A DNA stretch of 20,871 nucleotides from Promethearchaeota archaeon. Its GTDB lineage: Archaea; Asgardarchaeota; Lokiarchaeia; Sigyniarchaeales; SOKP01. The notes beneath the pieces were generated by a model that saw only the letters and a program-made list of their open reading frames with translations, was not told the DNA's origin and did not search any database. The translations under genes were made by a program, and so were the position numbers. The DNA is taken from assembly GCA_019058295.1 (NCBI GenBank), contig JAHPZI010000013.1:1-20871 (forward strand), read 5' to 3'. Numbering within the stretch: position 1 is the first letter of the stretch; every line of letters starts with the position of its first letter. Positions 12,284 to 18,551 of the stretch are shown piece after piece.

Positions 12284-13036
12284 ATGACTGACCTTGGATC
12301 TAAATATTCCGAGATTAAAAGCTTTTTATCAATCCCCGACGACCGATTTGATTTGGAGGAAACTATAAACGCAACATTTGAATCGGAATCGGAGGATAAA
12401 AAATTATATGTCCTAGGTAAAGTTATAAATTTTATAACACATTTTGCTATGTTTAAAGAAATAAAACCTTTCATGAATTCTGTTTTTATTTGTATTAAAA
12501 AGACTTTAGAAATAAAAACGCAAAATTTAGGAGACTATGATGAATTATTAATAAAAAATTCACTTATGAGATTTGTCCAAGAGTATATAACATATTCTAA
12601 TTTATCACAAAAAGAGGAAATCCTTAATTTCATTGCCCGCTCATTTGAGAAATTGCAACTACAACCTTTAATCATCAATCTTGGTTTATTACTTAAGCCA
12701 ATGTATTCAGATAATGATTATCTCAACAAAATAAAGGATTATGAAGAAATTGAAGTCACATATATCTTAAACGATGAAAATGAGGTAAAAATAAAGAAAG
12801 AAATTGATAAATGGCTTGAAACTCAAGAACTTACTTTAGAGAATCAAAACGCTACAAGGGAACGGTTACTAGAAAAATATGATCAACTAGTTGGTGAATA
12901 TAACCTTTCAAAAGAGTCCAAATCATATCAGAAATTAATGAAGGAAGTTGAGGAAATGCTTGCAATGCGACTTACTGTTATGAGTTTAATGGAGTCTATA
13001 GATGAGTCATTTGAACCTATTCCAATTAATAAATAA
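12284..13036 (+). CDS. Hypothetical acidic, largely alpha-helical protein
   Basis: 250-aa ORF with normal codon usage. TATA-like TTATATAA at ~12250. No recognised motif. Confidence 0.8.
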   Translation: MTDLGSKYSEIKSFLSIPDDRFDLEETINATFESESEDKKLYVLGKVINFITHFAMFKEIKPFMNSVFICIKKTLEIKTQNLGDYDELLIKNSLMRFVQEYITYSNLSQKEEILNFIARSFEKLQLQPLIINLGLLLKPMYSDNDYLNKIKDYEEIEVTYILNDENEVKIKKEIDKWLETQELTLENQNATRERLLEKYDQLVGEYNLSKESKSYQKLMKEVEEMLAMRLTVMSLMESIDESFEPIPINK

Positions 13037-14962: not shown

Positions 14963-15160
14963 AATTTTCAGCTTATTTTTATAAACTCTCCATTAAAAGA
15001 AAAACATTCAATTTTCATTAAAAATACATAAAATATCTCTGTGATATTTCAATAACATAAGGACATTATTTTTCTCTATCAAACCAAATACAAAAAAATA
15101 AAAATTAATATAATTTATTTAAAAATTAGCTTTAAAGCACAATGAAAAATATTGATTATT

Positions 15161-15619
15161 ATGGGAACTGAAAGTGATAAAGGCAATGTAAAGAATAAAA
15201 TCTCTTTAGGTTTGATAGTGACAAAAGATAAATTAAACAATTCTATTTTCCCTTCAGAAATTTTAAAGGAAATTTTAGATGCTCCTTATTATTTGTTAAT
15301 TTTCATTTCTCGCGAAGATTTGGTTAAAGTGAGCTGTTTTCCTACAAAAAGTAAGGATATAAAAAAGGTTTTAATAAAATTAACCGAATTTTCACCGGAA
15401 CCCGTGAAAGGCATACCTACTGTTTTAAGAGAACTTGATTTAAGTAAGAGTATTTTACATACTACAGGATTATGCTACGAAATGGAAAAATGTTGTTATG
15501 AGACTTATATTAATTGCGAAGATTTAGATAGTAATAAAATTGAAATTCTTAAAGAGAGGCTCAAGGCTGTTGCGAAAGTAATTGATGTAGAGGTTGAAGA
15601 TATTCGTGTTCATAACTAA
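15161..15619 (+). CDS. Hypothetical protein with ACT-like (ferredoxin-fold) C-terminal domain
   Basis: C-terminal beta-alpha-beta-beta-alpha-beta pattern ending LKERLKAVAKVIDVEVEDI. Fold is inferred by eye. Confidence 0.65.
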   Translation: MGTESDKGNVKNKISLGLIVTKDKLNNSIFPSEILKEILDAPYYLLIFISREDLVKVSCFPTKSKDIKKVLIKLTEFSPEPVKGIPTVLRELDLSKSILHTTGLCYEMEKCCYETYINCEDLDSNKIEILKERLKAVAKVIDVEVEDIRVHN

Positions 15620-15649
15620 TAAATTTAACACAAATTAATCTTGATAATT

Positions 15650-15859
15650 ATGGCCGATAAAAAAAAACCACCTCCTCCAATAATGCCTCCTAGCAGCGTT
15701 AAAATTACAGAGAATTTTTGTCTTTTCCATAAAGGAGATATTGAAGGGGATATTTATCAATGCAACACTTGTAAGACAAAATATTGTCTTGAATGCGCAA
15801 AAAAGGCGAAAGCAGAAGGAAAAAAATGCATTAAATGCAAGCAGTTAATTTTTATTTAA
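15650..15859 (+). CDS. Small RING-like zinc finger protein with N-terminal polyproline
   Basis: KKKPPPPIMPP followed by C-x2-H-x10-C-x2-C-x4-C-x2-C-x10-C-x2-C (8 ligands). Confidence 0.8.
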   Translation: MADKKKPPPPIMPPSSVKITENFCLFHKGDIEGDIYQCNTCKTKYCLECAKKAKAEGKKCIKCKQLIFI

Positions 15860-15873
15860 ATATAGTTCAAAAA

Positions 15874-16269
15874 TTATTCATTTTCTCTTTTGATTGTTGA
15901 TAAAGATCGCCACGTTTTCCAAAAAAGCAACAACATTATTATAAAAATGAATAATGCCGTAGCAAAAATATACCCTCCTATAAATGGGTCTACAAAAATC
16001 ATAAATGGAATCCCTGCCATAGAAAATCCGAACATGAATCCATACCCCCAATACCTGTTTTTACAACCAATAATTACACCAGGGATACTAGAAATAAAAA
16101 TAATTGATAAAAAAGACCAAATTTCCATAAAAGCTAAAATTAATAACATATTGAACCAAGAAATAACTCCTCCAATAAAAAAAAATACAACTGTTCCTAT
16201 ATCTAATTTAAATTCAGGTTCAATCTTGCCTAAAGGGCTTATTGATTTTTCTTTTTTCTTATCTTGCAT
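15874..16269 (-). CDS. Small integral membrane protein, ~4 TM
   Basis: Four hydrophobic Gly/Phe-rich segments with charged termini. Confidence 0.8.
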   Translation of the reverse strand: MQDKKKEKSISPLGKIEPEFKLDIGTVVFFFIGGVISWFNMLLILAFMEIWSFLSIIFISSIPGVIIGCKNRYWGYGFMFGFSMAGIPFMIFVDPFIGGYIFATALFIFIIMLLLFWKTWRSLSTIKRENE

Positions 16270-16499
16270 AAGAATCTAATTATTTTTAAATTTATATTTC
16301 TCTATTTTACAATTTACAACCAAATTTTTAACCGCTTTGTATAAATTTATACTTTTCTCTTATATTTTTATAATAAAGAATTTATATAATGGGAATTATA
16401 TATACTATAATGAGATAAAAATTTAAGTTTTTTATACCATAAAATTTGAGTTGAACACGTAACAAATTAAATAAATTTAAATAACAAATCTAAAAAAAT

Positions 16500-16662
16500 G
16501 ACTCCTGCCGCACCCTGGATTTTTGTCTTTTGGTTAGCGTATTTCGGTACGCTATGATTTTGCCCTCCTCCCCCTATTTAATTTATGACCTTATCATTAG
16601 GTCTCGCTGGCAGGAGTCTCCTTTTCCAAATTATTTTACCTGTTATTAATTTGAAGGGGAGA
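16500..16662 (+). ncRNA. Putative structured non-coding RNA or regulatory leader of unknown family
   Basis: Perfect 10-bp closing stem GACTCCTGCC (16500-16509) / GGCAGGAGTC (16609-16618). Internal hairpins TAGCGTA-tTTCGg-TACGCTA (16535-16554) and GACCT-7nt-AGGTC (16587-16603). Adjacent hairpin 16617-16662. GC-rich island in a very AT-rich spacer. Strand is inferred from the UUCG loop and G-U pairs. Confidence 0.6.
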
Positions 16663-16801
16663 TAAAAAAATGAAAAGTAATAATTGTTTCTATTTTCGTC
16701 CCTTTTATTAAAAAAATAAAAATTTTTTTATACATATTTTTAATAGTATGTTTCCTAAGATTATCATTAAATATCATTTTGTTTATTTTATCAAATAATC
16801 T

Positions 16802-16810
16802 TTTATATAA
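16802..16810 (+). promoter_or_regulatory. Candidate TATA box for tes
   Basis: TTTATATAA ~35-43 nt upstream of ATG 16845. Weak evidence in AT-rich DNA. Confidence 0.4.
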
Positions 16811-16844
16811 AATAACTAGTTAATAATTTTCAAAGTTGAATTTA

Positions 16845-18551
16845 ATGACAGAGTATGAGATTGTACGGGAGACTATGTCGCTGTGTCCAGAATGCTTGAC
16901 CCAAATACCCGCTCAATTCTATGTAGATCCCTCAAATAACTGGGTAATGCTTCGAAAAACATGTCCAGATCATGGTGAGTTCAAAGATAAAATTTCAATT
17001 GATGCCGATGAATATAAGTGGCATATGAACTTCACGGAAGAAATCGGTTCGATGTCAGGTGAAAGTATCTCAACTAAACCTTGTGAAGTGTCTTCAGGGA
17101 TTAAGAAAACCGAGAAAGGGTGCCCTTATGATTGTGGTATTTGTGAGAATCATAAAAGTGCCCCCTGTATATGTTTAATAGATGTTACTAATCGGTGTAA
17201 TCTTGCTTGTCCAATTTGTTTCGCAAACGCTTCGGCAAAAGGATATGTTGTAGAACCCTCCTTTGATGAAATCATACGAATTATGGAACATTTTAGATCT
17301 ATGAAACCAACTCCTGCTGTTTTGCTTCAATTTGCCGGTGGAGAGCCAACACTTCGAGACGATCTTCCTGATATAACCAGAAAAGGTAAAGAGATGGGAT
17401 TTCTTGATATTATGGTCTCAACAAATGGGATAAGAATTGCTAAAAATATTGATTATCTTCAACAACTGAAAGATGCGGGACTTGACACGGTATATTTGCA
17501 GTTTGATGCTACTGACGCTCCTGAAGTATGGAAAAAAGTAAGAGGAGTTAACCTATGGCCAATCAAAAAAAAAGCAGTTGAAAACATTCGAAAAGTTGGC
17601 GGAATTACTCTTATGTTAGTCCCAGTTATAGCAAAAGGAGTAAATGACAGTCAAGTTGGTCCTATTATGGAATTTGCGAAGGAAAATAAAGATATATGCG
17701 GTGGCGTTGTTTTCCAACCAGTTTCTCTGTGTGGTCGTATTAGTTTCGAAGAATTAATGGATTTGAGATATACCACATCAGATTTAAAAGTTGATATTAA
17801 TAAAGCAACAAATAATATGATTACAAAATTTTATCCGCTTGCAACATCTGCTAAATTCACGGGATTACTAGCATGGTTTGATGACGTACCGAATTGGTCA
17901 AGTACAAGCCACCACGATTGTGGCTTTGCTACCATAGGTATCATAAATAAAAATAACGAGTGGGAGCCCATCGAAAATTATGTTGAGGTAGAAGGACTGC
18001 TCAGATGGTCTAATAAAGTCTATGATATGGTTCAATCAAGACAAGTACCTAAGCCTACAGGTCTCTTAGGCAATATTGACTTATCACAATACGGGAAGTT
18101 GGCTGAAACAGTTGGAAATTTTATCGACGACATAACTAGTCTCGGATATAGGCAGATGATGAAAGCATACTTTTTTGCTGGTCTTGTTAAATATGTTAAA
18201 ATAAAAAAGGTCTTAGATAGTACATTTGCAAAGTCCTTAAGCCAATTAATATTAGCCCCAAATATGAGAACTGCGGGGAACTTTCTGCTTTCGGGCAATA
18301 TTTTAGTTTCTGCGATGCATTTTCAAGACGCCTATAATTTTGACCTTAATAGGATAAAATCATGTCTTGTACACTACGGTATTATTGACCCAGACAACCC
18401 AAACAAAGTTTTGGAGGTTCCATTTTGTGCAATGAACACCGTGCATCGTGAAAGATTGGAGCTTGCTCATGTAAAGAAAGGGCTTCAAACAGAGAAACCA
18501 GAAGTAATTACCGAGCGAATTTCAAAATATATAGAAACTATCGAAAAATAA
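16845..18551 (+). CDS. tes: Tetraether lipid synthase Tes / GDGT-MAS (MJ0619 family radical SAM)
   Basis: N-terminal SLCPEC...CPDHG metal site, GCPYDCGICENH cluster, DVTNRCNLACPICFANA, GGEPT, VYLQFD, FQPVS, HDCG, MHFQDAYNFD...CLVHY and PFC motifs. Confidence 0.9.
   Translation: MTEYEIVRETMSLCPECLTQIPAQFYVDPSNNWVMLRKTCPDHGEFKDKISIDADEYKWHMNFTEEIGSMSGESISTKPCEVSSGIKKTEKGCPYDCGICENHKSAPCICLIDVTNRCNLACPICFANASAKGYVVEPSFDEIIRIMEHFRSMKPTPAVLLQFAGGEPTLRDDLPDITRKGKEMGFLDIMVSTNGIRIAKNIDYLQQLKDAGLDTVYLQFDATDAPEVWKKVRGVNLWPIKKKAVENIRKVGGITLMLVPVIAKGVNDSQVGPIMEFAKENKDICGGVVFQPVSLCGRISFEELMDLRYTTSDLKVDINKATNNMITKFYPLATSAKFTGLLAWFDDVPNWSSTSHHDCGFATIGIINKNNEWEPIENYVEVEGLLRWSNKVYDMVQSRQVPKPTGLLGNIDLSQYGKLAETVGNFIDDITSLGYRQMMKAYFFAGLVKYVKIKKVLDSTFAKSLSQLILAPNMRTAGNFLLSGNILVSAMHFQDAYNFDLNRIKSCLVHYGIIDPDNPNKVLEVPFCAMNTVHRERLELAHVKKGLQTEKPEVITERISKYIETIEK

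Follow-up and report, generated by a model that had tools for sequence, protein, structure and literature searches.

Sm proteins are the protein family that builds the small nuclear ribonucleoproteins (snRNPs) of eukaryotes. Sm-like rings bind U-rich single strands beside stems, and an Sm ring needs about 7 to 9 nucleotides (nt). The small RNAs (sRNAs) LhrC1-5 of Listeria and RsaE/RoxS of Firmicutes are multicopy siblings whose C-rich seeds pair with Shine-Dalgarno regions. In AT-rich archaea, Klein, Misulovin, and Eddy reportedly found GC-rich structured RNAs (HgcC, HgcE, HgcF, and HgcG) by composition in 2002. The noncoding RNAs of Asgard archaea, the closest known relatives of eukaryotes, are barely known. 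Here we describe an RNA gene in a 20,871-nt stretch of DNA from an Asgard archaeon of the class Lokiarchaeia (GenBank assembly GCA_019058295.1, contig JAHPZI010000013.1, positions 1 to 20,871; referred to here as the window). We conclude that positions 16498 to 16625 of its + strand are almost certainly a stand-alone gene for a folded noncoding RNA of about 128 nt, which forms a GC-rich island. This near certainty applies to a real + strand noncoding RNA gene, with its fold and its strand; the further steps that we propose below are worded conditionally.

The elements of the RNA are, in order, the 5' strand of helix P1, an invariant U-rich segment (CUGGAUUUUUGUCUUUUGGU), hairpin P3, a C-rich linker (GAUUUUGCCCUCCUCCCCCUAUUU), hairpin P4, the return strand of P1, and a CCUUUU tail. 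Like the Hgc RNAs, it is a stand-alone GC island in AT-rich intergenic DNA, with a conserved fold and a U-tract end. Unlike them, it belongs to another lineage, is multicopy, carries a 20-nt invariant U-rich motif, and has no Rfam match. With Sm-class RNAs (snRNAs and the sRNAs of SmAP, Lsm, and Hfq), it shares an apparently unpaired AU5G-type segment between helices, a 3' U tail, and the presence of Sm-family genes in the genome. It differs from them in that its GAUUUUUGU has no closing purine and is embedded in the 20-nt invariant block, in that it is not homologous to any snRNA, and in that binding is only predicted. The likeness to LhrC, RsaE, and RoxS lies in paralogous copies with their own promoter and terminator and in an unpaired CCUCC-like tract, in a genome that uses GGAGG Shine-Dalgarno sequences. 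In contrast to those sRNAs, the RNA is archaeal and has another fold, its tract lies in a junction linker and not in hairpin loops, and a target search gave no clear target.

Results

The helices covary around one invariant sequence

A preliminary description, made from the letters of the window alone, had proposed a structured RNA at 16500 to 16618 with a 10-plus-2-bp closing stem, two internal hairpins, two U tracts, and a pyrimidine tract. We found all of these where it had placed them. P1 is a perfect, GC-rich 10-bp stem (GACUCCUGCC/GGCAGGAGUC) with two more base pairs (GC/GC) past a bulged U at 16608. The U tracts are AUUUUUG (16519 to 16525) and AUUUUG (16557 to 16562), and the linker at 16554 to 16586 is unpaired in both the minimum free energy (MFE) fold and the consensus fold. 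The fold does occupy 16500 to 16618, but the conserved unit is longer and adds AU at the 5' side and UCCUUUU at the 3' side. The MFE of the + strand is -40.0 kcal/mol, versus -23.5 ± 3.2 kcal/mol in 200 shuffled sequences (z, -5.1), none of which was as good. The GC content is 43% in the element versus 13 to 18% in the surrounding spacer.

Covariation analysis, which the preliminary description had recommended, gave strong covariation in P1, P3, and P4. In an alignment of 61 copies, 95.4% of the cells were paired, versus 31 to 51% when the partners were slid, and 23 of 28 pairs had changed on both sides. The alignment held 284 double-change cells versus 62 expected, a value that was reached in none of 500 shuffles. 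This alignment was fitted to the covariance model; an independent MAFFT alignment of the best copy from each of 23 genomes (A1) gave the same picture on a smaller scale. Two-sided changes were found in all 22 pairs of the three helices (P1, 10/10; P3, 7/7; P4, 5/5). The sequence of P1 is wholly different between subfamilies (GGCUCUCAG/CUGAGAGCC, GAUUUCCCCC/GGGGGAAAUC, and GGUCCUUAUCC/GGAUAAGGACC), and P4 gives a compensatory example in the change from GACCU/AGGUC to ACGCG/UGCGU. Short forms of about 108 nt, which are without P4, occur in one genus. The UUCG cap that had been pointed out on P3 is present in the window copy, but this loop is not conserved, and orthologues have UUUA, CUUU, and others. 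P2, a small hairpin predicted inside the U-rich invariant segment, showed no covariation in the 61-copy alignment. P2 never covaries because the segment is invariant, and its pairing is therefore unproven.

While all of the stems drift, the 20-nt motif stays invariant. We found that CUGGAUUUUUGUCUUUUGGU is the only family-wide invariant sequence: it is present in 23 of the 23 best copies and is near-invariant in the 81 copies collected. The first of the two U tracts, AUUUUUG, which had been called Sm-site-like, lies inside it. The linker is pyrimidine rich in all copies and reads GAUUUYGCCCUCCUCCCCCUAUUU in most, and its C-rich tract is conserved and unpaired. Nearly all copies have a tail with the consensus (U/A)CC(U/C)UUU immediately after P1. 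Two copies (L100:424-575 on the - strand and L093:367-525 on the + strand) have an extra hairpin of about 25 to 30 nt that separates GGAU from UUUUGUC in the otherwise invariant motif.

The RNA is kept throughout one family of Lokiarchaeia

The assembly to which the window belongs (G000) is 79% complete and holds a single copy, both by BLAST and by R1, the covariance model made from alignment A1. BLAST gave matches in 34 of 36 further genomes from the GTDB family of this assembly, frequently with several apiece. With R1 at an E value of ≤0.001, we found the RNA in 96 of 101 genomes of the GTDB family and in all 36 of its high-quality genomes, at 1 to 12 copies per genome. At an E value of ≤0.01, the RNA was found in 98 of the 101 genomes and, in the other three families of the order, in 2 of 14, 1 of 1, and 0 of 4. 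A broader covariance model (R2), built from 61 diverse copies, matched 30 of 30 genomes of the family versus none of 10 genomes that represent other families in the class. Thus, the searches across relatives and the copy count that the preliminary description had suggested returned a family that is nearly universal in one Lokiarchaeia GTDB family and one copy in the genome at hand.

Weak related RNAs with the same order of elements are found in two genera of a sister family and in a third family. These forms have a variant AUUUUGUCUUUUUGG motif, and their C tract is closed into a local CCCC/GGGG hairpin. Among the divergent homologues are L115:1501-1622 and L118:1501-1625 (both - strand; closed 6.0-Mb sister-family genome G055, with a homologue at C1:3151869-3151990, - strand). 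By the titles of the NCBI records, the carriers are almost all Promethearchaeota (Asgard) metagenome-assembled genomes. High-scoring copies (up to 133 bits) also occur on contigs titled Hermod-, Hod-, Thor-, or Odinarchaeota in NCBI (L125, L150, L162, L172, L201, and L204), and the NCBI labels and the GTDB placement seem to disagree.

A 17-mer core of the motif also matches bacterial contigs. None of the nine bacterial loci tested fit the model, nor did the two loci labeled Bathyarchaeota and Nitrososphaeraceae that hold the core, and these matches are due to chance. The exact 20-mer occurs in three IMG/VR contigs (L122, L123, and L124). Two of them (L122 and L124) are coding-like DNA without the fold, at 19 bits, and the third holds a weak copy (L123:7-135 on the - strand, 41 to 48 bits) at the extreme end of a 224,826-bp contig filed as viral. 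With two matches foldless and one weak, we drew no viral association of the RNA.

The RNA has no Rfam match and is not a tRNA, 5S, RNase P, SRP, C/D, or Y RNA

At the gathering threshold, Rfam 15 gave no match in the whole window, and at an E value of ≤10 we found chance matches only (12 to 22 bits, versus gathering thresholds of 48 to 80). The preliminary description had taken the element for a novel small RNA. The strong covariation and its retention in nearly all genomes of the GTDB family bear this out. It had also reported no likeness to tRNA, 5S rRNA, signal recognition particle (SRP) RNA, or C/D RNA, and we found none. ARAGORN detected no tRNA or transfer-messenger RNA gene in the window, and a bulge-helix-bulge motif of the tRNA-splicing type was not found at P1 on reading the sequence, which has a 1-nt bulge only. 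RNase P RNA and SRP RNA (RF00373 and RF01857) are each accounted for at other loci of G000 (C7:12632-12958 and C10:19378-19615).

We rejected 5S rRNA, which has a three-way junction and the loop C motif CCCAUCCGAAC, as there is no RF00001 match at the element. A separate 5S-like gene with loop C lies elsewhere in G000 (C2:~12395-12580, + strand), and such genes are also found in G114 (L073) and G116 (L072). The 5S-like sequence of G000 is circularly permuted: the 3' half comes first, helix I is closed by a linker hairpin, and the 5' half ends in loop C. CCGGAAG is repeated at both ends of this permuted gene, which is the only 5S-like sequence found. Because the 5S sequence is permuted, RF00001 scores only 25 to 28 bits in the GTDB family; the colinear 5S rRNA of the sister family scores 54 to 67 bits.

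No conserved C (RUGAUGA) or D (CUGA) boxes are present near the ends in A1, and the internal CUGAUU is variable there (UAUGAUU, CUAAUU, and CUCAUU); C/D box sRNAs were thus rejected. Y RNAs are alike in length (about 100 to 130 nt), in having ends that pair in a long bulged stem, in an internal pyrimidine-rich region, and in a 3' oligo-U. However, there was no Rfam Y RNA match, and PF05731 (TROVE/Ro60) was not found in five genomes of the family that carries the RNA, in which the controls were positive. A small protein gene (ATG at 16498, 19 codons) was also rejected: the frame is shifted by indels (1 to 3 nt) on the stretch from P1 to the invariant motif, and the start codon is missing in about one-quarter of the copies. 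This RNA is not described in Rfam or in the literature searched, which gave no description of Sm-site RNAs in Asgard archaea either. We concluded that the RNA is a new family of stand-alone archaeal structured sRNA in Lokiarchaeia.

The RNA may be part of an Sm-bound ribonucleoprotein

At up to three mismatches, CUGGAUUUUUGUCUUUUGGU occurs once in G000. Its complement was not found there at up to two mismatches or with G-U pairs, in an assembly that holds almost no rRNA. Since the genome holds no complement, an invariant unpaired U-rich block suggests recognition by a protein, and CUGGAUUUUUGUCUUUUGGU is probably a protein-binding site and not an antisense guide. We found that GAUUUUUGU matches seven of the nine positions of the Sm-site consensus AAUUUUUGG, a eukaryotic consensus, and that P2, a weak local hairpin without covariation, is predicted over the motif. 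The genome of G000 has three LSM-domain genes (C2:149478-149672, C26:68380-68568, and C15:103576-103791), and there are three or four in each genome of the family and three in the sister family; this count is too weak an argument for a dedicated partner. The consensus AAUUUUUGG is that of eukaryotic snRNAs (PMC5587771, PMC4756616), and archaeal Sm-like proteins bind U-rich RNA and sRNAs (PMC3710371, PMC4500138, PMC10779274).

The C-rich tract is CCUCC rich, in the same sense as an anti-Shine-Dalgarno sequence, and a share of the G000 genes use GGAGG-type Shine-Dalgarno sequences at -14 to -8. In about 15 to 20% of the copies, from at least three genera, AAAAUAAAAUAGGGA lies 10 to 40 nt upstream of P1 and is a 12- to 16-bp complement of the linker CCCCUAUUUUAUUU. 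The leader of other genera carries AAAAUAGGGA, the complement of the linker CCCCUAUUUU, and yet other copies have leaders (GAGGAGGCAAA or GGCAAAAUUUU...) that are complementary to their own linker. Leaders with purine segments complementary to the tract occur in many copies, and leader and linker show matched changes, as from AAAAUAGGG with CCCUAUUUU to AAAAUAGGA with UCCUAUUUU; a further matched change is AUAGGA with UCCUAU, and one G-U pair fits the + strand only. Leader-linker duplexes have a mean energy of -14.5, whereas shuffled leaders give -11.8 and downstream flanks give -12.3, a difference that is clear in a subset only. The predicted leader-linker pairing is a subfamily feature and does not define the family. 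The leader complementarity and the CCCC/GGGG hairpin of the sister family point to the C-rich tract as a pairing surface for G-rich partners, which would be masked in cis in some copies.

We propose, at a probability of about 0.35 to 0.4, that the RNA is a trans-acting component of a ribonucleoprotein (RNP), is bound by Sm-like proteins, and uses its C tract to pair with G-rich sequences. According to this model, protein would bind at the invariant U-rich segment, and the most likely binder would be a ring of archaeal Sm-like proteins. The helices would keep the C-rich linker open for pairing with G-rich, Shine-Dalgarno-like sequences of other RNAs or, in some copies, with the leader of the RNA itself. 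Such pairing would control translation or stability, and the extra copies in relatives might serve gene dosage or be differently regulated siblings.

A number of findings count against this model. The 20 invariant nt exceed the need of an Sm ring and suggest a more specific partner, and GAUUUUUGU ends in a U where the eukaryotic consensus has a closing purine. All archaea have Sm-like proteins, whose presence therefore proves nothing, and LSM genes are equally present in relatives without the RNA and thus do not discriminate. A search for targets of the C tract in G000 gave no convincing extended one; the sites are scattered and lie mostly in Gly-rich coding DNA or Gly-codon repeats. Strong complementarity of leader and linker is restricted to the 15 to 20% of copies given above. 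In the window, the leader AAAUUAAAUA (16466 to 16475) is complementary to the linker UAUUUAAUUU through only 10 A-U pairs and is weak. Finally, the internal U5 run is itself a potential termination signal in archaea.

The excess of invariant sequence over what a ring needs would fit a dedicated, lineage-specific RNP without Sm proteins, in which a specific protein or a tertiary contact reads the 20-nt motif and the function is a housekeeping one (for example, RNA processing or modification) and not antisense regulation. Consistently with this, the RNA is nearly universal in the family with one copy inherited vertically, the motif is found only in the RNA within G000, and no clear mRNA target was found. 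However, no protein gene is consistently linked to the RNA, whose neighbors are a membrane protein, a 155-amino-acid (aa) protein, and a radical SAM enzyme, and duplicated copies share no neighbor at all. In addition, a conserved open C tract is typical of pairing seeds. We regard such an RNP without Sm proteins as the main rival, somewhat less likely than the Sm-bound model.

In a more far-reaching form of the Sm-bound model, Asgard archaea would have a true Sm-ring RNP with this RNA at its core. Such a prokaryotic counterpart of the Sm-class snRNPs would act on other RNAs, in their processing or in the control of 3' ends or translation. Its layout, with an Sm site between helices and a pyrimidine-rich antisense element, is reminiscent of U7. 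We consider this form improbable; if true, the RNA would be the first partner RNA through which Sm proteins of archaea are linked to snRNP-like particles, and this in the organisms most closely related to eukaryotes. The resemblance to an Sm site raises a testable question, namely, whether Asgard Sm proteins have dedicated structured RNA partners. Even if the Sm reading fails, the covariance models allow annotation of the RNA in Asgard genomes and searches of metatranscriptomes.

The primary copy keeps its gene neighbors across genera

The window copy is flanked by a 131-aa gene on the - strand and a radical SAM gene on the + strand (16836 to 18551) and lies in the spacer that separates them. 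This arrangement is part of a conserved block, in which a protein of about 155 to 157 aa, a membrane protein of about 131 to 133 aa on the opposite strand, the RNA, and the radical SAM gene follow one another, as one copy per genome in 15 to 17 genomes of at least six genera. The block spans 15152 to 18551 in the window and is found at loci L009 to L032; its 571-aa radical SAM protein has an N-terminal Zn ribbon, and the protein of about 131 aa is hydrophobic. Every copy examined is intergenic. Judged by these positions, the RNA is stand-alone, and its primary copy is vertically inherited. The duplicated unit is the promoter plus the gene and ends at the U tract or terminator, as expected of ordinary gene duplication, and the duplicated copies have no neighbor gene in common.

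Wherever copies share the neighborhood, the RNA precedes the radical SAM gene without exception and is co-oriented with it. This order, and a multistem junction whose conserved unpaired bases look aptamer-like, would suit a cis-acting leader (a riboswitch or attenuator) of the gene at 16836 to 18551, with P1 and the U tract as a regulated terminator. In contrast, the downstream genes are unrelated at 19 other loci, and 7 of 20 point toward the RNA (convergent). The spacer to the gene is 190 to 420 nt long, AT rich, and not conserved, and the duplicated units end exactly at the U tract. We found no constant co-oriented downstream theme, rejected the riboswitch or cis-leader class, and consider a role as leader of the radical SAM gene very unlikely.

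The preliminary description had offered a mobile element as an alternative. In this case, the RNA would be a miniature mobile element (MITE or PATE) or a relic of one, and the 10-bp arms of P1 would be its terminal inverted repeats. Relatives do hold as many as 12 dispersed copies, with some at contig ends, and the regions around same-genus copies lack a counterpart in G000 that has the same neighbors; the flanks of nine such copies do not map adjacent to each other in G000, where an empty site was sought. However, G000 itself has a single copy, and the arms differ between copies yet stay complementary, unlike ends that are bound by a transposase. No target-site duplications are present at the borders, as had been noted before, and the left border is not sharp. 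There is no transposase or integrase among 121 neighboring proteins, the position of the primary copy and its gene neighbors is kept across genera, and the duplicated unit ends at the terminator. We rejected a mobile origin, to which we assign a slightly lower probability than to the cis-acting leader.

The + strand is favored and its 3' end is well defined

We compared the two strands in the 81 copies and found that the + fold is more stable in 76 of them (mean, -37.7 versus -32.9 kcal/mol). In the variable stems, G-U pairs are many times as frequent as A-C juxtapositions. By these measures, the functional strand is the + strand. A functional transcript from the - strand, which the preliminary description had allowed for, would run from an upstream TTAATA through a purine-rich GGGGGAGGAGGG tract to a U7 run after the stem. 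We rejected this reading, which is as improbable as the mobile element: a T7 run does adjoin the stem on this strand and its fold is significant (-36.5 kcal/mol; z, -4.05), but the + fold is the more stable one, many G-U pairs would turn into A-C mismatches, and the conserved promoter-like box sits on the + strand.

The 3' end is well defined by the sequence, because the U tract directly follows P1 and the homology of duplicates ends there. Among three recently duplicated copies of one genome, it stops exactly at the U tract. On the 5' side, the box AGATAAAAATTTAAG at 16413 to 16427 may work as a promoter, and orthologues with the same gene neighborhood keep it in sequence and roughly in position. 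The related word AGATAAAAATTTAAA is a generic promoter-like word (transcription factor B recognition element [BRE] plus TATA) with 373 matches at up to two mismatches in G000. AGATAAA is found upstream of 23 of the 81 copies versus downstream of 2, and the box lies 58 to 103 nt upstream in many copies. The TTAAATA at 16467 to 16473, to which attention had been drawn before, does lie at TATA distance, but it is not conserved in orthologues, and the box at 16413 to 16427 is kept better. By the position of the box, the leader would be about 45 nt long in many copies, and in others, with the box at -35, there would be none; a TATA box occupies -46 to -37 in the triplicated copies. Because the box position differs among copies, leader length would be variable, and the 5' end, unlike the 3' end, is not well defined. 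A second AGATAAAAATTTAAA-type copy at 16285 to 16299 (- strand) points at the divergent 131-aa gene, and the copy at 16413 to 16427 points at the RNA.

Features of the locus

Table 1. Coordinates of the RNA and of its predicted control elements in the window
Feature	Positions	Strand	Details
Conserved RNA unit	16498..16625	+	Full-length covariance-model match: R1, 152 bits, E 2.3e-40; R2, 134 bits
P1, 5' strand	16500..16511	+	GACUCCUGCC (16500-16509) plus GC (16510-11); partner, 16606-16618
Family-wide invariant motif CUGGAUUUUUGUCUUUUGGU	16515..16534	+	Sm-site-like: GAUUUUUGU, then UCUUUUGG
P3 hairpin	16536..16553	+	7 bp; UUCG loop in the window copy, closed by U-G
Unpaired linker	16554..16586	+	Holds UGAUUUUG and the anti-Shine-Dalgarno-like pyrimidine tract CCCUCCUCCCCCU (16563-16575)
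P4 hairpin	16587..16603	+	5 bp, 7-nt loop
P1, 3' strand	16606..16618	+	GC (16606-07), bulged U16608, GGCAGGAGUC (16609-16618)
Tail UCCUUUU	16619..16625	+	Directly 3' of P1; U tract is the probable archaeal terminator/3' end
BRE/TATA-like promoter box AGATAAAAATTTAAG	16413..16427	+	1 base off the generic word AGATAAAAATTTAAA; start would fall near 16450
Possible 5' leader	16450..16497	+	Up to about 48 nt; would exist only if the box at 16413 is the promoter, from whose position it is predicted
Alternative TATA-like box (preliminary description)	16467..16474	+	Centered about 27 nt before A16498, where the RNA would then start; would give no leader

At 3 of the 19 other RNA loci, a TFIIB/TFB paralogue lies within about 1.5 kb of the RNA (L046:4653-5066, L048:3292-4035, and L049:1676-2584). 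The paralogue at L048 is divergent and 25 nt from the RNA; the association of these genes with RNA loci may be due to chance. Downstream of the RNA in the window, we considered whether the G tract AAGGGGAGA (16654 to 16662) might pair with the C tract; a 98%-identical orthologue (L010) has lost this G tract, and we treated it as chance. The region from 16654 to 16711 also holds a GGGGAG tract 8 nt before the ATG (16671) of a 13-codon open reading frame that lies just 3' of the RNA.
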